This document shows positions 17,918 to 29,618 of a stretch of 34,121 bases of DNA, one piece after another; the first letter of the stretch is position 1; each line of letters opens with the position of its first letter. Both the position numbers and the translations under genes were made by a program. The notes beneath the pieces were generated by a model, which saw only the letters and a list, made by a program, of their open reading frames with translations, searched no databases and was not told the origin of the DNA. Source of the DNA: a virus (taxonomy: Duplodnaviria; Caudoviricetes). Where the stretch lies: positions 1 to 34,121 of the IMG/VR virus record IMGVR_UViG_3300021560_000043, one strand, 5' to 3'.

Positions 17918-18637
17918 CTAACTCGGCTTGTAATCAAACGGCATGAACGAGCTGAGTTCCGCCCGCGCCGCGCAGCGATTCCCAGTCTCGGGATGATCCG
18001 CCGCGCCGGTGAATTCACCCTGCGAGTTGGTGCCGCCTTTGAGAGCCTGTATCTTCTTCTGCCCATACACCGTCTTGGGCCGCTTCGTCAGCTTCTGAAG
18101 GTTCGGCCCGGTGTACTCTCCCACCTCGCCGATGGCCTTCTCCGCCTCGGAGTCACGGAGGATGTTCTGCACCCGCGCGTAGCCGATGGGCTCACCCTTC
18201 AGCACCTCGTCCAATTGCTTGACGTGCTCCACCGCTTTGAGGCCAGCAATCGGTTTCCCCGTCAACGCCTTGAACGCCGCGCCGACGGCGGACTGATTGT
18301 TGCGGTCCACGTCCGGCTTGGTGGTCAACGGCATCCCGGTGAAGACGAACTTTCCGTCGATCCTCGGGTTGTCAGGAGCGATGATGATCCCCTTCACCGC
18401 AATCTCCGCGTGCGGCCTCGTCTCGTTCTTCCACTGGGCCATGCGGTATGGCACCCGGTTCCCCTCGTGAAACACTCCGCCGTTGGAGAATTTCATCTGG
18501 TACGTTCCGTCGGGGATTGGCGGGGCGGGACGGTTATATTCCGCATCGGGGTCAAATTCCCCCGGCGCGCCAATTTCCTCGTCCTGCTCCTCCAGTGAAC
18601 TCAGGTAACTCTCGTCATACGTGATCTCAACTGCCAT
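17918..18637 (-). CDS. putative single-stranded DNA-binding protein (DUF669-like OB fold)
   Basis: Acidic N-terminus, PIPDGTY motif, beta-rich core; downstream of the AAA ATPase as in phage Sak4/SSB modules. Confidence 0.55.
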   Translation of the reverse strand: MAVEITYDESYLSSLEEQDEEIGAPGEFDPDAEYNRPAPPIPDGTYQMKFSNGGVFHEGNRVPYRMAQWKNETRPHAEIAVKGIIIAPDNPRIDGKFVFTGMPLTTKPDVDRNNQSAVGAAFKALTGKPIAGLKAVEHVKQLDEVLKGEPIGYARVQNILRDSEAEKAIGEVGEYTGPNLQKLTKRPKTVYGQKKIQALKGGTNSQGEFTGAADHPETGNRCAARAELSSFMPFDYKPS

Positions 18638-18691: not shown

Positions 18692-18859
18692 CTATGGTGC
18701 GACCACAGTGCCCAGTTCCAGCAGGATTTGCTGATCGAGGTCCCTGCGGGCCGCTTTCGCCGCCGCGCTCAACTTCTCGTACAACGCCTTGTCATCGCCC
18801 GAAAACACCAGCGTCACGCGATTCGTTCCGTTGGACTTCTTTGTTGCGCTCTCTGCCAT
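18692..18859 (-). CDS. Arc-like ribbon-helix-helix DNA-binding protein (55 aa, not in ORF track)
   Basis: AGGAG RBS, TGATG overlap; MAESATKKSNGTNRVTLVFSGDDKALYEKLSAAAKAARRDLDQQILLELGTVVAP matches the strand-helix-helix pattern. Confidence 0.65.
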   Translation of the reverse strand: MAESATKKSNGTNRVTLVFSGDDKALYEKLSAAAKAARRDLDQQILLELGTVVAP

Positions 18860-19779
18860 CACTTCTCCTTTCTGAGGAACTCAAGAAATTCCCCGATTCC
18901 CGCTTCCAGTGAAAGCGGGATATATCCGTTGGGCCACTTCGCCCACAGATCCTTCAACTGCGCCGGCGGGAGCGTGACCTTACTCGGCCATTCGATCTTC
19001 GGAATCTCGGAGGGGTGCTTGTTGTACCACGCCTTGATCTTCTTATCCTTTCCAGCTCCCTCGGCCACGAGATGGAAGCAATGGTTGACGCGCGATGGCA
19101 ACTTCCCATTGATCGCCTTCCCAATCGTCTCCGGCCCGAGCGCCGTGCGCTTGATGCCGGAATCGTCATCCTCGCCCTTCCCCTCTAGCGCGGTGAACAT
19201 AGTGATGTGAACAGGGAGCGATTGGAACGATTGCAGCAGATCCAAAATCTCCGTGTGACAATCCGCGTAGTGATTCATGGTGTTGGTGCCCATTTGCTCG
19301 CCGTCCTCCAGACGGGGAGCGGCGGCGGGATCTCCTGACCGCTGATTCTTCTGCTTTACATCGGACATGAAGGCGGTGGCGTAGGAGCTGAGGGAGTCGA
19401 TTACGATGGCGCCGATTTCCGCTTCGTCTTCTGGAGACCATGGTCTCCATTTGGTATTCGTCTGATAGCGCACGACGCCCTTCTCTTCAATACGCGTAGG
19501 AAGATTTATGATCCCATCTACTGGGAACTCGCCACGCCGTAGCTTCCTCATCACAGCGAATGGATTGTACTCATGTCCTGTCGGAAACTCTAAGGGCACT
19601 ATGATTCCCGCATCGACAAGATCTTGACTGGGGGACCAAAGAGAGCCGCGATCTAGAGCAATGAGCCTAGTCTTCTTTCCAGTCATTTTGTAAACGTGCT
19701 CAGCAACGTAGCGAGCCTGCGTTGACTTGCCGCTATCGGAAGCTCCGTAAACAATTAGCGATGTCTTTCCTAGTGACAT
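18859..19779 (-). CDS. AAA/RecA-like ATPase (Sak4/AAA_24-like)
   Basis: Walker A YGASDSGKST, Walker B IVIDSLS, 'GPETIGK...LPSRVN' motif; ATG 19779 with GGGG RBS. Confidence 0.8.
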   Translation of the reverse strand: MSLGKTSLIVYGASDSGKSTQARYVAEHVYKMTGKKTRLIALDRGSLWSPSQDLVDAGIIVPLEFPTGHEYNPFAVMRKLRRGEFPVDGIINLPTRIEEKGVVRYQTNTKWRPWSPEDEAEIGAIVIDSLSSYATAFMSDVKQKNQRSGDPAAAPRLEDGEQMGTNTMNHYADCHTEILDLLQSFQSLPVHITMFTALEGKGEDDDSGIKRTALGPETIGKAINGKLPSRVNHCFHLVAEGAGKDKKIKAWYNKHPSEIPKIEWPSKVTLPPAQLKDLWAKWPNGYIPLSLEAGIGEFLEFLRKEK

Positions 19780-20201
19780 GCGATCCCCTTTGCGCGCCGT
19801 TCCGCCTGATACACGGCTGTCTTGTGACATGAATAGAACGCGCCGATCTCAGGGCCGCTGAAGCCATATGCACGCAAGTCAACAATTTCTCGCAACTGTT
19901 CGTTGCGAATCTTAGGTGCGGCCCCGCGATGAATGTTCACGAACTTAGTGACAGGTTCTACGTGATTCGGACGCACGCAATCGCGCTGGCGGCATAGATG
20001 ATCCATCTCCATGTTCGGAGGTATCGGACCGTTCAGCATCTCGTACAGCCAACGATGTGCATACATCTTCTTTCCGTTGTGCCACACCTTGGCATAACCG
20101 TTGGGAGTCAGCTTCGACTTCTTCCAAATCCAACACGGCGTATCATGCCCGCGGTCTTCAAATTCGAACAAGGGCTTCCCATTGTTTTCAAACGTCGCCA
20201 T
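19770..20201 (-). CDS. HNH homing endonuclease with C-terminal HTH
   Basis: CWIW...GY...AHRWLYE..NGPIP...DHLCRQRDCVRPNH..PVT..VN. Confidence 0.9.
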   Translation of the reverse strand: MATFENNGKPLFEFEDRGHDTPCWIWKKSKLTPNGYAKVWHNGKKMYAHRWLYEMLNGPIPPNMEMDHLCRQRDCVRPNHVEPVTKFVNIHRGAAPKIRNEQLREIVDLRAYGFSGPEIGAFYSCHKTAVYQAERRAKGIACH

Positions 20202-20350
20202 CAGAACTCCACCTCTTCCCTTCTCGCTCTCTCAGCCGTTTCAATCTCATCCATAATGGCCCACTCCTCCGCCCGCTCGTCGAGCCATTTCTCATACTCT
20301 TCGTCGCGGTACGCTCCCTGCGCTTCTTTCAAATCAGCATCGTCAATCAT
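20201..20350 (-). CDS. small acidic protein (49 aa, not in ORF track)
   Basis: GGAG RBS; MIDDADLKEAQGAYRDEEYEKWLDERAEEWAIMDEIETAERARREEVEF; overlaps both neighbours. Confidence 0.6.
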   Translation of the reverse strand: MIDDADLKEAQGAYRDEEYEKWLDERAEEWAIMDEIETAERARREEVEF

Positions 20351-21545
20351 TGTCGTCTCCATGCTCGGGGTGGTTACTCAAACGGATTTGGTATAAATCG
20401 CCAGGCTGTGCAGGAGCACCGTTCCAGCACGAATCCAAGAACGCGCACCCCAGAAAGGAATGGCATGAGTGCGTATATTGCGGAAACAACCTATCCAGCA
20501 ACTCCTTTGGCGGATCGCCAACAAGAAGGTACGGACGGAGCACTTCCAACTTGTCCGCAATCTCAAGCTCTTGCTGCACGACTTGCGTGCGCCAGCTCTC
20601 CACCTCATCCACCCGTCTCTCCACCGGCGTCTGCACCGGGAACACACTCGCGAGTGCCGAAAGATGACGGGGAAAAACGCGCTGATGGTGGAGGTCATCG
20701 ATCCACGCTTTCACCCCGCCTTCGTACTCGCGCCAGATGGGGACTTTCCGCCATCCCTTTCCGAGACGCGAGGACCCTGATCCATCCTCCTTCTCCCACT
20801 CGTAAGCCCAGCTCCACTCGTCCATCTCGGGCGTGTCGCCGCGCTTCAGCCAGCCATAGATGAGCGGAGTGTTTTGCTTATACAGATTGTCGAACTTGTC
20901 AAGACTGCGACGGCCCTTCACCACATGCTTGTACAGAATCCCTTCAATCTTCCCCGACCCGTTCGCCTCCAGCCCAAACATCTCGCTCATCGATTGCATA
21001 TCGGTACGACTTTGGTCGATGTTGCGCTTGCTGAATGCGGCGGTAGTTTTCCACGACACGACAAAGAGATCGCCGCTCGCCTTCTCCCGCACGAGAGCGT
21101 CGGGGCGGAACATGAGGGTGAGATCGTTGGCGAGATCGGCGCGCCCTTCGCGCTCTACCTCCATCACCTCAAACTGCTCCAGGAACTCTTTCCCTTCGTA
21201 CGCCCACCATCCGCGCAGCAGGGCCTCTGCCAGCGCCATCTGCTCCTCGCGTCCGTATGCCATCGCCGCTTCCACATTGGCCGGCTGCTCGCCGTCGAAA
21301 CTCGTGCCGCCATTGAGCGCTTGTTCGAGAAAGAGGAATGCACGGAGGATCGCTTCCTCGACATTCCCCTGAAGGAGATGCTCTGCTCCTTCATGAAAGG
21401 CGGAACCGAATTGTAAAGGGAGCGACTTCCGTGTGCGCTGGAGTCCGGTGCCCAAATGGTGATACGCCAGATATCTCTCGCGCGGGCATCTTTGGTAGCT
21501 TATGATTCGGCTTCTGTCAGTTTCCATCACTCTTCTCTCAATCAA
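20343..21545 (-). CDS. PD-(D/E)xK exonuclease, Cas4/AddB-like with probable Fe-S cluster
   Basis: SYQRCPRE...FGSAFHE, RPDAL..SWKT, C-terminal C-x5-C-x5-C. Start may be ATG 21527. Confidence 0.8.
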   Translation of the reverse strand: MIERRVMETDRSRIISYQRCPRERYLAYHHLGTGLQRTRKSLPLQFGSAFHEGAEHLLQGNVEEAILRAFLFLEQALNGGTSFDGEQPANVEAAMAYGREEQMALAEALLRGWWAYEGKEFLEQFEVMEVEREGRADLANDLTLMFRPDALVREKASGDLFVVSWKTTAAFSKRNIDQSRTDMQSMSEMFGLEANGSGKIEGILYKHVVKGRRSLDKFDNLYKQNTPLIYGWLKRGDTPEMDEWSWAYEWEKEDGSGSSRLGKGWRKVPIWREYEGGVKAWIDDLHHQRVFPRHLSALASVFPVQTPVERRVDEVESWRTQVVQQELEIADKLEVLRPYLLVGDPPKELLDRLFPQYTHSCHSFLGCAFLDSCWNGAPAQPGDLYQIRLSNHPEHGDDND

Positions 21546-21608: not shown

Positions 21609-22082
21609 TCACAGTTTGTTCAGTACCGCAAACTTCCCATGCAGCTTCTTCGCCATCTTGTTATAGGCTCTCGCTGCCTGCTCAGGTGTTGAATGAAGCC
21701 CAAGATAAATAGCCTTCCCTTCGTGTCCGATAGAGGCCATCCACTTCTTGCCGATAGCGTGCCAAAACACGCCCTTGAAGCCGCTGGAACTATTGGTCTG
21801 AGCCGCCCGATTCTGCTGGTTCTGTGAGCGTGTGCATACGCGCAAATTGGAACGTTGGTTGTTATGGGGATTGCGATCAATGTGATCCACCACCATTCCC
21901 TCGGGCGGATTCATAATGAATCGCGCCAGATACACACAACCGCCCTTCTTGCCGTTCGGCCTTCCTGCCGCATGTCGCATAGCTCCCGAAGGGAACCACC
22001 GCACCCTGGCCACCTGATCATAATCCTGTGGCGATATCAGCAGCGGAGTGCCGTCACTCATATAAATGGTCATCACTTTCAT
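21609..22082 (-). CDS. HNH-AP2 homing endonuclease
   Basis: VVDHIDRNPHNNQRSNLR..T..QN HNH domain plus SSGFKGVFW...W.ASI...YLG..TPEQAARAYN..AKKLHGKFA AP2 domain. Confidence 0.92.
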   Translation of the reverse strand: MKVMTIYMSDGTPLLISPQDYDQVARVRWFPSGAMRHAAGRPNGKKGGCVYLARFIMNPPEGMVVDHIDRNPHNNQRSNLRVCTRSQNQQNRAAQTNSSSGFKGVFWHAIGKKWMASIGHEGKAIYLGLHSTPEQAARAYNKMAKKLHGKFAVLNKL

Positions 22083-22089
22083 TGGTCGT

Positions 22090-22119
22090 ATGCTACAGCT
22101 ATATACGACTAAAAGTCAA
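22090..22119 (-). promoter_or_regulatory. possible promoter of the HNH-AP2 gene
   Basis: TTGACT-18 bp-TAGCAT; predicted start site close to the ATG. Confidence 0.45.
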
Positions 22120-23699
22120 TGCAGATCGAAATTATTCTTCCCCACCTGATGCTCAACCTCGACACTCAATCCCTCCAGCCCGGTCACGCCTGGATAGACC
22201 ATCAGCGGGCAGGGCGTCTCCATGATCGGTGGTACATTAGCGCGGCACTCCTCCACCAGCTCATCCGGGCAGTCGAACTTCAACGAGTCGTGCGTCGTGT
22301 TGATGATGCGATATCTTTCCAAATATCCCGCCGCATCCAATCTCAACATCCCATCCCGGATCATCCCAAACGCATTGCTTGCTGGAAGGAAGGCAATTGC
22401 CGCCTCACCTTGCTCCCCACCTACCATCTTCTGCTGCTTTCTATCCCATCGGATAACATCGAAGAAGTGTCGAATAGCCCCGAAACGCGAAACCAAACGC
22501 TTATCCTCATGCGCCCTCTGCTTCACTTCGTCCTGCCATTTCAGCAAGCCAGGAAACAATTCGCGCATAATGAGATCCCATAACCCTTCCGCCTCACGCT
22601 GAGACTCGAAATCCTCTTTGTAAAGCTGATACATCTTCTTCCCACGCATTCCAAAGCCGATTCCTAACCCCGCTGATTTCGTCTTGCCATTACGAATCTT
22701 TAGAAAGGTCAGGCCGTTCGTCCATACGCGCGATTCACCCTTCAGTTCCTTGAAGAACGCTTTCAAATCCCCATCGCTCATCCTCAGCAGATTGTGCCGT
22801 TCGGGGTGTTTGATGAAGTGGCATGTAGTGAAGGAATGAAGATCGATCCTCGCTAGCCTCAAGTATTCCGGCAGCCCCGCCTCACACGCTGTCGTCTGCG
22901 CATGAAAGCTCTTATAGTCGAAGTTGACGAGGGTATGGCCGGGAGATGATACAAGCGTACGATTGAATGCCTCAACCAATGCTTCCTGAAACTCAGTCTT
23001 CCCTCGTGCAGGAGAGTTCTGCACATTTGGTGCTTTGCTCGTTAGCTGCCACGTTGCGGTGCCGAAACCATATGTGGTGTGAATCTTACCGTCGGCATGA
23101 GGCTTGTAGCCGTCAACGTAGGTGCCCTCGACCTTTGTCAGTTGCCGCCGTTGGATTAGAAGAGGATAGATAGGGTGCTTGGTCGTCTGAAACAGCCTCT
23201 CTAGTTCCTTGACTTCCGTCGTCTCCGCCGCCTCCCCCTGCGCATCCTGCCGCTTGGAATGTTTCGGCACCGGGTGCCTGTGAAACCGCATGAACTTCAG
23301 CACCTGCTTTTGGGAATTGGGATTGAACTCCACTGGCAGCGCCCAGCGCGTAACTACACTCCCCGCCGGAATCATGCCGGAACCCGCACAGACGGCACAC
23401 GTGGGACGGGCCGCCTTCAAGCATGAACATTTCTCCTCCTTTTCGATTACGACTTCGATTTGGACCATCCCCGTGGTGTCTTTCGGCGTTCGTTTCAGCC
23501 CGTGTTTCTGCTTGGTGCTCAGCACCTCCGCCGGCACCAGGAGTCGAATCTCCGCATCTACGCGCAGTGATTCCCGCTCCAGCAGCGTACGTAACTCCTC
23601 CCGTTTCCCTGCGTCGATGGGAATCCCACGCGCGCTCATATCGCGCAGGATGGGGTGGATGTCGCGGAAGTAAATTTGGTAGCTATCCAATAAGTTCAT
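22116..23699 (-). CDS. polA: family A DNA polymerase, polymerase domain only
   Basis: RGIPID, FNPNS.KQ, GKIHTTY..GTATWQLTSKAPNVQN, motif A DYKSFH, motif B R...K...LG..FG, motif C HDS. Confidence 0.9.
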   Translation of the reverse strand: MNLLDSYQIYFRDIHPILRDMSARGIPIDAGKREELRTLLERESLRVDAEIRLLVPAEVLSTKQKHGLKRTPKDTTGMVQIEVVIEKEEKCSCLKAARPTCAVCAGSGMIPAGSVVTRWALPVEFNPNSQKQVLKFMRFHRHPVPKHSKRQDAQGEAAETTEVKELERLFQTTKHPIYPLLIQRRQLTKVEGTYVDGYKPHADGKIHTTYGFGTATWQLTSKAPNVQNSPARGKTEFQEALVEAFNRTLVSSPGHTLVNFDYKSFHAQTTACEAGLPEYLRLARIDLHSFTTCHFIKHPERHNLLRMSDGDLKAFFKELKGESRVWTNGLTFLKIRNGKTKSAGLGIGFGMRGKKMYQLYKEDFESQREAEGLWDLIMRELFPGLLKWQDEVKQRAHEDKRLVSRFGAIRHFFDVIRWDRKQQKMVGGEQGEAAIAFLPASNAFGMIRDGMLRLDAAGYLERYRIINTTHDSLKFDCPDELVEECRANVPPIMETPCPLMVYPGVTGLEGLSVEVEHQVGKNNFDLH

Positions 23700-24840
23700 T
23701 GCTCAACACCTTGTCCATGTGATCATCAACACACAGCGCCGCGTCTGTATCAAAGCACCCGTAAAGCGGCAGATCATCCTCGCCAATAGCCTTCCAGGCG
23801 TACGGGAATCCGCACATCTGGGCGGCAGTCTGCAAATTCTTCGGAAGATCGCTCCAATACGTCGAGAACTTCACCATCGCGTCGTCCGTCACGCCGACAT
23901 CCACTCCATTGACCGTCAGCACTTCATCATCGAAGTTCCAGCAGTTATAGCCAACTTTCTTTGGGGCTCGGCTGAAGATCGCCTTTGCCACATCCACGAA
24001 CTCCTCCCGCCATGGGAGCGCAATTCCTTCCCCACGCCTTTGAGTGAACTGCACCAGCTTGATATCCCGTTCTGTAAATCGGGTGCGTTCTTCCTCGTCG
24101 CTGCGGGTACTGAGGGGAGTTTCAAGGTCGTAACTTAGTTTCAATTCAGGGTCTATCGCATCCGCCCACCTCCAGGCTTCGTCAATCGTGGGGGCGGTTT
24201 GATAACGCAAATCCATCTCCCCTAATTGAACCGCGAAATGTCTCCCTCTAACGAGTCTTCCACTTGCGAGAAGAAATCCTCGTCGGAGATCGCGCTGTAG
24301 CAGAGGCGTGAGGTGGGCCGCGCCGCGACGCAGGAATGCAGGATGATAAGTAGGAACCACGAGTCTGCCGGTTGCAGCTCCAGCACCGGCATGGACATAT
24401 CCACGGGCGTAGTCAAGAGTTCCATATTTTCCTTTCGGCGGAGATGCGAGGGTGCGGAAGGCCGTCCCGCCTAACGCTACAATCGCGGCGGGGTTCAAGT
24501 CAGCTATAACTTTTGTCAGGTAGTTGGTGGTGCACTGGGAGACGGCGTGGTACTGCCAGGGGGCACCTTCGAGCCAGTCTTTCGGGGGGCGGCAGCGGAC
24601 GACGTTGGTAATTGCCACTTCAGCTCTATCGATGTGAACCTCGCGCATCGCATCAGCGAGGAGACTGCCTGATTGAGCATACGGGCGGAAAGGGAGCGAC
24701 TCACGCGCTTCGGCTTCACCAGACGCCTCGCCAACGAGCAATAATCGCGTATTGTCATATCGCTTTCCAATCTCCACCTCCGTGAATCCACTCCCGATCT
24801 TTTCTAAAGGACACTGCGAACATTCAGCAGGTTTTTGCAT
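23683..24840 (-). CDS. family 4 uracil-DNA glycosylase-like domain fused to 3'-5' exonuclease (N-terminal half of a SPO1-type PolA)
   Basis: CxxC...VGEASG..E...PF...TNVVRCRPP...C...VALG...TYHPA; then Exo I YDLET, Exo II GYNCWNFD, Exo III YGCFD. Confidence 0.88.
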   Translation of the reverse strand: MQKPAECSQCPLEKIGSGFTEVEIGKRYDNTRLLLVGEASGEAEARESLPFRPYAQSGSLLADAMREVHIDRAEVAITNVVRCRPPKDWLEGAPWQYHAVSQCTTNYLTKVIADLNPAAIVALGGTAFRTLASPPKGKYGTLDYARGYVHAGAGAATGRLVVPTYHPAFLRRGAAHLTPLLQRDLRRGFLLASGRLVRGRHFAVQLGEMDLRYQTAPTIDEAWRWADAIDPELKLSYDLETPLSTRSDEEERTRFTERDIKLVQFTQRRGEGIALPWREEFVDVAKAIFSRAPKKVGYNCWNFDDEVLTVNGVDVGVTDDAMVKFSTYWSDLPKNLQTAAQMCGFPYAWKAIGEDDLPLYGCFDTDAALCVDDHMDKVLSNELIG

Positions 24841-25294
24841 GGCGCTTGTAATACTCCTTCAGATACTTCTTCATGTACTCACGCCGACCTGGCCGCAGGT
24901 GCCGAGGGATAGGATTTGCGGGACTGTGATGCAATCCGTGTTCGCGCGCATCCATTAGAGTCAGATTGGAAATGTCATTGTTGGTGAAGTCGTGATCGAT
25001 ATGATGCACGTGTTGATCGCGAGCTAATTTCACTCCGTAGTGCCGTTCGTATGTTTTGCGTGCTGCTTGCCGAGATGATCTCCAGTGCTTGGAACGCGGA
25101 GGCTGCCGAATACGATTAGCTTCGGATATCGTGCGAGATAGTCCGTTTTCCTTCAAAATGCGTGCTACATAGCTAGAGCCTATACTCAGCTCGCTCGCAA
25201 TCTGGCGTGAACTCTTTTGATTGATAAAGAGATCAATTATTCGCGCTTCTAACTGCGCGCGCAGAGGAGCCTTACGAAACAAAGGTTTGGGCAT
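24824..25294 (-). CDS. HTH-HNH homing endonuclease
   Basis: N-terminal SSRQIASELSIGSSYVARIL HTH; HVHHIDHDFTNNDISNL...H..HH HNH motif. Confidence 0.85.
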   Translation of the reverse strand: MPKPLFRKAPLRAQLEARIIDLFINQKSSRQIASELSIGSSYVARILKENGLSRTISEANRIRQPPRSKHWRSSRQAARKTYERHYGVKLARDQHVHHIDHDFTNNDISNLTLMDAREHGLHHSPANPIPRHLRPGRREYMKKYLKEYYKRHAKTC

Positions 25295-26366: not shown

Positions 26367-26477
26367 TGGCGGGATGAATTCCCACCCCAACTCTGCGTAA
26401 AAGGAAAACCCCACGTTTGCCGCGTGGGGTCTCATGTCTCCGGTCTCCCAACCAGAAAGGCCCAAAGGAGCCTCTAT

Positions 26478-27872
26478 ATGGCAAACGATACCACAGCACA
26501 ACAAGTAACGCCAAAAGGTAAGAAGACCGTCCCTGTGACGGAGATGCCCGTCTCCCTCAACATCGCGTTTGAAAAACTCAACAGTTCCTACTGCTTTGTG
26601 GAGCAGATCGCGCAGATCGTGCGCATTCCCACCGATTCTCGCCCCTTTCTCGACATCTACCCGCCAACTGTATTCGCCAACTCCCTTGAATCTACGCGCA
26701 AGGCTGAAGGGCTCCCCGTAGCGTCGAAGTGGATACGCTGGAGCGGCCGGCGCACAGCCTACCAGCTCGTATACGAACCAGGGCAGCCGCGCTTCACGGG
26801 CGGTAACCTCAACACATGGATGCCGTCGAAGGTGAAAGCCAAAAAGGGCGACATTACACTCTGGCTCGATTACCTTCAGCGCGTCTTCACCACTGATCCC
26901 ACGTACCAAGACTGGTTCCTCGCATGGCTGGCGTATCCGCTCCAACACCCCGGCACGAAGCTCCATACCGCAACCGTGTTCTGGTCCGAACAAACCGCAA
27001 CGGGCAAGTCCATGCTTGGGCGCATTATGAGCGCCATCTACGGCCAGCACAACTACGCCCAACTCGACGAAGCCACCCTGCACAATCCCTTCAATTTCTG
27101 GGCAGTTGGCAAGCAATTCGTAATGGGCGAGGAGATCAAAGGAGCCTCCAGCGCCAAATATGCCGACAGGCTAAAGGCCATGATTACTCAACAAGTCAAT
27201 TACGTAAACGTGAAGTACAAAGCGCAATTCGAACTCCGCGACTGTCTCAACTACTACTTCACCTCCAACCATCCCGACGCTTTCTACCTCGACTCCAACG
27301 ACCGGCGATTCTTCGTGCACAACCTTGGGGATCAGAAATACCCCGCTGATCTCTACCGCGATCAATTCGAGCCGTGGTTCAACAATGGCGGCGCCGAGGC
27401 AATTCGCCACTACTTGGAACACGAAATCGACCTCACAAAGCCCATTGTTGGGGGAGATCCTACCTCGTCAACTCCCCACCGCTTCAATCCCGGCGCAGCA
27501 GCTCCCCAGTCCAATGCACGCAAGGCGATGATTGTTGCGAACCTAGATGATGTGGAATGCTGGCTGAATGAGCTTCTGGACTCTCCTGGAGCGATTCTCA
27601 AAGGGGATGCCGAAGCTTGGACCTGCGCCACAGCGCGTGAACTCTACACTCTATTCTGTACACAGAACAAACACACAAAGTGCCTGCCCAAGCGTTTCAG
27701 CGCATTGCTACGCCGTCAGGTCCCGCCTTTGTATTCCGACAACAAAATAGACCTAACACCTGAACACCGGGACAAACTTTACCCGACTCGTAAGACGCCA
27801 CGTTCGGGTAAGCCGTGGCGAGAATTGGGTGCGCTCGAACTTTCGGTCGAATGGAATGAGGTACGGGTATGA
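26478..27872 (+). CDS. SF3 (D5/DUF5906-like) replicative helicase without primase domain
   Basis: AAGGAG RBS before ATG 26478; WLAYPLQHPG.K, Walker A QTATGKS, Walker B FVMGEE, LKAMIT, motif C FTSNH, DRRF. Confidence 0.85.
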   Translation: MANDTTAQQVTPKGKKTVPVTEMPVSLNIAFEKLNSSYCFVEQIAQIVRIPTDSRPFLDIYPPTVFANSLESTRKAEGLPVASKWIRWSGRRTAYQLVYEPGQPRFTGGNLNTWMPSKVKAKKGDITLWLDYLQRVFTTDPTYQDWFLAWLAYPLQHPGTKLHTATVFWSEQTATGKSMLGRIMSAIYGQHNYAQLDEATLHNPFNFWAVGKQFVMGEEIKGASSAKYADRLKAMITQQVNYVNVKYKAQFELRDCLNYYFTSNHPDAFYLDSNDRRFFVHNLGDQKYPADLYRDQFEPWFNNGGAEAIRHYLEHEIDLTKPIVGGDPTSSTPHRFNPGAAAPQSNARKAMIVANLDDVECWLNELLDSPGAILKGDAEAWTCATARELYTLFCTQNKHTKCLPKRFSALLRRQVPPLYSDNKIDLTPEHRDKLYPTRKTPRSGKPWRELGALELSVEWNEVRV

Positions 27873-29237: not shown

Positions 29238-29618
29238 TTACCGTTCATGTCTCAATCTGTGGCAACAAGCACAGATCACAACGCACTTAGCGATTTCAGC
29301 AACTAGAGCCCGTGGTGTGCAGCGTCTCCATCCAATCGTGAACCGTTTAGGGAACTTGACGTGGTGGAAGTCCATGCAAACCTTGGGGAACCTATTACCG
29401 CAATCGGCGCACGGTACATCTTTAGCAGCGGCAATAATCGCCTTGTTGCGCTCAGTCCGCGTTACACGACTCGCACGGTCCATCTCGCGTCCACGTTCTG
29501 ACAGCCGGTATCTGTCGCGCCTTGCCTTGCCGCGCTCCGAGTCTTCATATCGGCGGATTGTCGCCTTGCCTTCTTCGGATTGCCTGTAAAGCTTGTAACG
29601 CTCTGGCGTGAATGGCAT
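29238..29618 (-). CDS. HNH endonuclease
   Basis: Basic SExG repeats, CADCG...MDFHH...EIAKCVVICACCHRLRH. Confidence 0.85.
   Translation of the reverse strand: MPFTPERYKLYRQSEEGKATIRRYEDSERGKARRDRYRLSERGREMDRASRVTRTERNKAIIAAAKDVPCADCGNRFPKVCMDFHHVKFPKRFTIGWRRCTPRALVAEIAKCVVICACCHRLRHER

Follow-up and report, generated by a model that had tools for sequence, protein, structure and literature searches.

The window analyzed here, a stretch of 34,121 nt, is part of the genome of an uncultured soil phage and contains a terminase, an endolysin, and a replication arm. The features of this arm that are needed below are the following (residue numbers in parentheses are those of Klenow).

17918..18637, minus strand: conserved neighbor gene, DUF669-like (Atlas DUF669 score 0.91-0.93)
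18859..19830, minus strand: Sak4-like annealing ATPase (profile match)
20343..21545, minus strand: PD-(D/E)XK exonuclease (profile match)
22116..23699, minus strand: polymerase domain (thumb, fingers, and palm) of a split family A DNA polymerase, 527 aa (Pfam DNA_pol_A, E 7e-26)
22284..22292, minus strand: motif C, HDS, with the catalytic D471 intact
22368..22394, minus strand: motif 6 with A436 (N845), A440 (Q849), and F444 (A853), its register set by the motif FLPQST of the sister clade described below
22653..22667, minus strand: L345 (762; 22665-22667) to F349 (766; 22653-22655) of motif B, KSAGLGIGFG, to which R336 and K341 also belong
22902..22907, minus strand: F265 (22905-22907) and H266 (22902-22904) of motif A, DYKSFHAQ, in place of I709-E710, the steric gate; D261 of the same motif is at 22917-22919
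23046..23048, minus strand: Q218 in place of R668, the minor-groove Arg
23683..24840, minus strand: uracil-DNA glycosylase (UDG) of family 4 and 3'-5' exonuclease, 385 aa (Pfam UDG, E 2e-20)
26424..27872, plus strand: D5-type (SF3) helicase lacking the customary N-terminal primase domain

Four HNH endonuclease genes (19770-20201, 21609-22082, 24824-25294, and 29238-29618) also lie in or near the replication arm.

An AlphaFold model of the 527-aa polymerase (pLDDT 95.6) matched Bst and Taq Pol I fragments in a Foldseek search (E 5e-20; TM about 0.65). This Klenow fold, the catalytic Asp residues in motifs A and C, and the Arg and Lys of motif B place the protein in family A. The first-pass annotation had listed the motifs DYKSFHAQ, KSAGLGIGFG, HDS, and TWQLTS, and all four are present in ORF 22116-23699; TWQLTS, however, lies at 23037-23054, about 110 nt beyond the range to which it had been assigned. 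The catalytic Asp residues and the motif B Arg and Lys are kept, as was claimed (D261, D471, R336, and K341), and the former are invariant across homologues. A HMMER alignment to KlenTaq placed Q218 on R573, H266 on E615, L345 on F667, and F349 on Y671; we take Taq R573 to be E. coli R668 and Taq E615 to be E710, a numbering based on a count along the chain. The canonical pocket of R668, E710, Y766, and Q849 is absent, and the polymerase has Q, H, F, and A at these positions. Beyond the substitutions first noted, the pocket changes comprise R668Q, I709F, N845A, Q849A, and A853F. The thumb of the window's subclade also carries a four-cysteine insertion (CxC...CxxC; polymerase residues about 90-105), probably a zinc knuckle, and a related insert is found in some sister polymerases.

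The UDG-exonuclease gene is separate, lies upstream of the polymerase gene, and overlaps its start by 17 nt (23683-23699). This junction is the same in two sequencing runs, both of them possible sources of the record, and the same overlap occurs at loci L006 and L007. The UDG catalytic Cys, E38, E44, N79, and H166 are conserved in the partner gene, as are D238, E240, D304, Y360, and D364 of the exonuclease, whose acidic residues are retained in 69 to 70 of 70 sampled members of the clade to which the polymerase belongs. The layout is thus that of a UDG-PolA in the broad sense, with a family-4 UDG N-terminal to exonuclease and polymerase, here in a separate upstream gene. Most relatives encode one fused UDG-exonuclease-polymerase protein: 179 of 236 clade protein records have at least 780 aa, and most of these long records carry a listed UDG domain, while 42 short records start at the exonuclease/polymerase junction.

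A programmed frameshift fusing the two genes need not be invoked, since the polymerase gene starts with an ATG of its own, preceded by a purine-rich stretch, and the junction contains entire genes in relatives. The PolA of phage S-SBP1 (PMC10201439) is likewise divided between exonuclease and polymerase into overlapping genes, with a +1 shift; it belongs, however, to the T7-like family, and the fission described here is independent and often marked by an inserted gene in relatives. At this fission point, we found HNH-like genes (L002:2208-2720 and L021:9466-9984) and a methyltransferase-like gene (L005:9444-10004), these three identified by eye, as well as an adenine methyltransferase gene (L004:9225-9992) and a Mom-like gene (L038:9389-9937). 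Other side observations concern the UDG (23683-24840), in which an RP insert after a conserved PF (residues 52-53) is present in 57 to 59 of 70 clade members and 0 of 55 sisters, and in which residue 88 is Asp instead of the usual Asn of PPxN in 26 of 70 clade members. Intein-like insertions directly after the TxxQLS motif or within motif B were seen in many homologues (P0005, P0009, P0014, P0018, P0067, and others).

Homologues were pooled from protein matches and from viral and genome loci. The query profile was matched by 558 sequences, 515 of which covered all seven key columns, and 446 were left at <90% identity; the homologue counts are samples, since each search gave its best 120 to 150 matches. 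Gln668 was present in 293 of the 446 sequences and Arg668 in 152, and a single sequence combined Thr668 with Glu710. At position 710, the Gln668 sequences have His (288), Phe (4), or Gln (1), while all 152 Arg668 sequences have Glu; 147 of the latter form a sister UDG-PolA clade and 5 are outgroups. There were no 668/710 intermediates (293/293 Q668 sequences without Glu710, 152/152 R668 sequences with it). In an extended search, the His clade grew to 354 sequences (<90% identity), 353 of which have Gln668. Position 710 is His in 346, Phe in 7, and Gln in 1 of them and never Glu, Gly, Ala, or Ser, so that a ring is kept in 353/354.

Further columns separate the two groups. Position 709 in the 354 sequences is Phe (268), Cys (34), Tyr (32), Ala (17), or Leu (3) but never Ile, the residue found in 147/147 sister sequences. 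Position 853 is Phe or His in 291/293 clade members versus Ala or Ser in 143/152 Glu-type sequences, and position 762 is Leu in 262/293 versus His in 143/152. Position 849 among the 293 clade members is mostly Ala (214), Gln (39), or Ser (31) and never Leu, and N845A is common to the clade and its Glu-type sister. Hence, E710H goes together with R668Q, with A853F/H, and with the loss of Ile709.

When the diagnostic columns were masked, the clade came out as monophyletic (FastTree 0.894; 185 sequences), and a second masked tree of 53 sequences supported both the clade (SH-aLRT 96) and the sister (SH-aLRT 97). Within the sampled sequences, the pocket residue set arose once. Because the clade is monophyletic, the perfect 668/710 coupling represents one evolutionary event in the sample and not repeated evidence. 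The earliest clade branches retain the His762 of the sister, so Leu762 was probably acquired later. Phe replaced His710 on 3 occasions, in every case alongside Asn766; with three independent pairs only, this link is not significant. Cultured relatives were not found: the best tblastn matches among 50,697 phage records, with the sister also queried, were 22 to 27% identical, and a GTDB genome scan for a host returned two short MAG contigs only. In the sister UDG-PolAs (e.g., L068:8831-11671), His762 lies outside the Phe, Tyr, and Leu classes described in the literature consulted. Some sister polymerases (L067, L070, L167, L170, L173, L177, L182, L183, L186, and L189) are interrupted inside the thumb region, possibly by introns or endonuclease insertions.

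The split of the polymerase gene from its exonuclease could point to decay or to an assembly error in this contig. The chance of this is negligible: the residue set is common to 354 nonredundant homologues, the catalytic Asp residues are invariant, and the sequence is identical in three runs. One run contained the whole stretch with 0 differences (and may be its source), a second soil run contained it in overlapping contigs (again a possible source), and a third soil run, from a different study, covered 21620-23544 with 0 differences. In line with the first-pass annotation, the rewiring is conserved at the level of a clade.

The proposal that E710H and Y766F form a coevolved pair was not borne out. 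F766 occurs in 92/152 Glu-type sequences (mostly in one well-sampled subclade), 79/293 clade members have N, L, or Y at 766, and the partner tied to E710H is R668Q. Similarly, of the H/F/WQ set to be checked for covariation as a clade, alignment and phylogeny support His and Gln but not Phe766 and Trp. The Trp that precedes Gln668 characterizes a subclade and is also found ahead of Arg in Glu-type sequences. HDS is found in 45/152 Glu-type sequences and also in the SP-10 and phiVC8 polymerases. Within the clade, position 766 instead covaries with 848/849. The pair 766-848 ranked first by mutual information (z 17), and the 766/849 combinations include F/A 196 times and L/Q 28 times but never F/Q. 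Of 19 independent pairs, about 17 change in the same sense and 0 in the opposite one (766 versus 848/849; p 1.5e-5). This covariation suggests conserved packing of the closed pocket.

We compared the polymerase with known UDG-PolAs and related enzymes. SPO1-like UDG-PolAs such as that of SP-10 (PMC10201439, PMC13697223) share the family-4 UDG with its catalytic residues, the 3'-5' exonuclease, the PolA domain, and HDS. The SP-10 polymerase is, however, 26% identical over 370 aa, keeps R668, E710, F762, Y766, and Q849, and was placed with the outgroup in the tree, where the His clade did not cluster with SP-10/SPO1. The N4-like UDG-PolAs (cluster 17, N4 gp39) have the same UDG-exonuclease-polymerase layout and similar neighbors (helicase, exonuclease, and Sak4), but N4 gp39 is 22% identical over 221 aa and keeps TVSGRLSS and DFASLE; N4 has an inactive UDG and Phe762 and encodes a primase, whereas here the UDG residues are kept and position 762 is Leu. 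The phiVC8-like and Wayne-like DpoZ enzymes share Phe766 with F349, and phiVC8 also has Leu762 and HDS. DpoZ nevertheless keeps Arg668 and Glu710, has 633 aa, falls in a cluster without a listed UDG fusion, and is accompanied by PurZ. Thus, Arg668 and Glu710 are retained in all of the nearest named groups (SPO1-like and N4-like UDG-PolAs and DpoZ), and identity to them is at most 26%. A search of nonsubscription papers, excluding the supplements of PMC10201439 and PMC13697223, revealed no description of a PolA with His710. The His710 clade is a conserved variant of phage UDG-PolA, apparently undescribed in print.

The likeness to DpoZ raises the question of modified bases, which the first-pass annotation had also suggested. 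Specialization for 2-aminoadenine, a modified uracil, or another noncanonical base would fit the joint presence of L762, F766, and HDS in phiVC8 DpoZ (PMC8599892), the minor-groove nature of the changed residues, and the modification of T by other UDG-PolA phages. Gene content argues otherwise. We profiled 50 relatives' genomes (47 of the His clade and 3 of the sister; 40 at least 90% complete; controls detected) and found PurA/PurZ, the ThyA family, FolE, and RNR in 0/50 each, ThyX in 2/50, and dUTPase in 1/50, as a weak hit below the cutoff. SP-10, in contrast, encodes a dUMP hydroxymethylase, a dUTPase, and an RNR; as to the T-modification genes of SPO1-like phages, these genomes hold only the weak dUTPase hit. 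PurZ was also absent from the scanned ORFs of the partial window, and dATP/dGTP diphosphohydrolase was found in 2/25 His-clade versus 9/25 sister genomes; NT5C gave no contrast (1/25 versus 4/25).

Palindrome depletion reflects restriction pressure on unmodified DNA. Palindromes of 6 bp are depleted in the window (0.44, compared to 1.03 in the shuffled window), in 19 clade genomes (0.36 to 0.70; mean, 0.52), and in 3 sisters (0.48 to 0.60). The value for T7 is 0.51, and those for the three modified-DNA controls are 0.78 (SP-10), 0.84 (phiVC8), and 0.85 (T4), SP-10 and T4 being represented by 49-kb parts; the test is uninformative on ribonucleotides. The lack of nucleotide-synthesis genes together with T7-like palindrome avoidance argues against a modified-base genome. 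Furthermore, DpoZ, as noted, retains the residues that are replaced here. We consider a noncanonical-base polymerase very improbable and the suggested use of modified nucleotides unlikely; Z-DNA and T modification were rejected on the gene content of the 50 genomes.

Additional observations on DNA and lifestyle were made in the same genomes. A DNA methyltransferase was found in 10/19 clade genomes (cluster representatives scanned). TTAA in the window is at 0.11 of expectation, the strongest 4-mer depletion among 23 genomes tested. One sister subclade has nucleotide-pool genes near the polymerase (L157:8196-8633, L158:15075-15464, L161:7442-8408, and L165:3151-3720), namely, nucleoside deoxyribosyltransferase-like, dATP/dGTP diphosphohydrolase, MazG, and NT5C genes, and DNA modification is possible there. 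A temperate lifestyle, suggested by Leu762, was rejected, since a tyrosine integrase was found in 1/25 genomes only.

What the repacked pocket does can be approached through its canonical counterpart. In Bst Pol I, an electrostatic cluster is made up of R615, E658, Q797, and D830 (Klenow 668, 710, 849, and 882), and fidelity drops when these residues are mutated (PMC10520511). The cluster of Arg668, Glu710, and Gln849 lies under the nascent base pair in Pol I enzymes. In this lineage, the charged pair appears to have given way to neutral Gln and His and residue 849 to have become smaller, with rings at 709 and 853 taking up the space; the contacts proposed here rest on the literature and on covariation. 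We favor, with modest confidence and from sequence evidence, a replicative, proofreading dNTP polymerase in which His serves as a substitute ribonucleotide gate and which copies DNA of probably ordinary bases.

In this reading, the imidazole of H266 would clash with the 2'-OH, as does His931 in archaeal PolD (PMC7708050). Loss of two minor-groove readers would also relax control of the primer end, shifting more of it onto the exonuclease, and might help the enzyme to pass abasic sites that its partner UDG creates. The PolD gate gives an about 2,300-fold preference for dATP over rATP and is opened by H931A/S/V (PMC7708050), and the engineered gate-open Taq enzyme carries E615G (table in PMC4854868). 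Since the gate-opening residues are small, a ring occupies position 710 in 353/354 clade members, and His is a measured gate in PolD, a substitute gate is favored; PolD has the unrelated two-barrel fold and serves as a functional analogy only. Further support comes from the absence of 668/710 intermediates, selection on 766-848/849 packing, the retained acidic residues of the exonuclease, and the missing nucleotide-synthesis genes together with palindrome depletion. Three reports count against a gate. Klenow I709F, which introduces the commonest 709 residue of the clade, raises rNTP incorporation (PMC4854868); random mutagenesis of Taq E615 tolerated only Asp (PMC4215692); and an aromatic residue at 762 is described as necessary for the Glu gate (bioRxiv 2026.05.20.726624), while the clade has Leu, which may weaken the gate.

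The I709F result also speaks for the main rival of a substitute gate, a permissive enzyme that uses rNTPs, dUTP, or damaged templates more readily and so helps a phage without its own dNTP synthesis in slow-growing or dNTP-depleting soil hosts. The lower fidelity of R668A and E710A mutants (PMC10520511) and the lack of RNR, ThyA, and all but one weak dUTPase in the 50 genomes are in line with this, as is the finding that the YerA41 and phiLo UDG-PolAs remove dU from the template and copy past the abasic site (PMC13697223). On the other hand, position 710 always holds a bulky side chain with a ring (but for the one Gln), the proofreading residues are intact, the Glu-type sister shares the UDG and the module, and branches in the clade are only slightly longer than in the sister (1.68 versus 1.54). 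A permissive pocket is thus possible, though unlikely.

A replication module of PolA, Sak4, SSB-like protein, PD-(D/E)XK exonuclease, and helicase is common to both clades. The product of 17918-18637 is probably a single-strand binding protein; its cluster (E 4e-41) is present at 35/61 His-clade and 21/40 Glu-type loci, and a single-sequence fold of the candidate gave a pLDDT of 34. Comparison of the 61 His-clade with the 40 Glu-type loci revealed no clade-specific neighbor gene. A Dda-like helicase is enriched (38/61 versus 4/40 loci) and was not found in the partial window.

Primases were sought in several ways. Prim-Pol was found in 0/25 His-clade and 1/25 sister genomes, and Toprim_2 and the DnaG zinc ribbon were found in 0/50 genomes each. 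The N4, T7, SP-10, and phiVC8 primases were also searched against 22 genomes and the window, and matches were limited to the half of phiVC8 p28 that is a helicase. Indeed, the D5 helicase of the window matches only positions 513-803 of 855 of phrog_1156 and residues 392-622 of phiVC8 p28. A PHROG scan covered 113 cluster representatives plus 120 of the 158 other ORFs of six complete genomes (the remaining 38 were scanned earlier or lie in the virion block); matches to primase-named families were confined to their helicase parts. Altogether, the Prim-Pol, Toprim_2, and DnaG zinc-ribbon searches detected no primase in 49/50 genomes across both clades; a divergent AEP (PF01896, PriCT) would lie beyond these profiles. 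Helicases without a primase domain are of two kinds, D5/SF3 and AAA_25/DnaB-like (L076:4944-6389, L127:16463-17377, L119:854-1867, and L093:534-1400). Two phages, G029 and G047 (L091-L093 and L096-L098), one of the His clade and the other Glu-type, have most of their virion genes in common, which suggests that the replication module moved between phage backbones.

This gene content recalls the CcPol-MP and proposed TV-Pol primases, in which a PolA likewise has a D5 helicase without a primase domain and a probable SSB close by (PMC7581432, bioRxiv 2022.12.02.518924). By analogy, the altered pocket could let the polymerase start chains with its SSB-like neighbor, and such self-priming could be compatible with a substitute gate. 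The idea is retained because no primase was found; however, the sister with its canonical pocket also lacks a detected one (1/25), so the absence, although reminiscent of the CcPol/TV-Pol setting, is no peculiarity of the His pocket. Moreover, CcPol primes with E710 and F762 kept and has lost most of its exonuclease (PMC7581432), whereas the exonuclease here is whole, joined to the UDG, and encoded by a separate gene. Replication could also be primed by recombination, with Sak4, exonuclease, and SSB, or by host primers. Self-priming as the reason for the pocket is therefore improbable. Somewhat bolder, and doubtful in our view, is the combined idea that in this primase-less soil-phage lineage the rebuilt pocket takes enough ribonucleotides to make its own primers or to replicate when host dNTPs run out; if true, this would be a natural Pol I-type enzyme that gave up the glutamate gate.

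Family A polymerases are regarded as invariant at Glu710, Arg668, and Gln849, where single substitutions cost activity or fidelity. These three residues are nevertheless replaced together in hundreds of natural enzymes, while a close sister with the same layout and module keeps them, and the two clades form a ready paired system for studying ways of rebuilding sugar and base-pair checking. That no primase turned up in either clade, but for one sister genome, is a question separate from the pocket. With His as a substitute gate, the clade would have reached a histidine gate by another route than PolD, and it may offer a starting point for engineered polymerases that take 2'-modified nucleotides.
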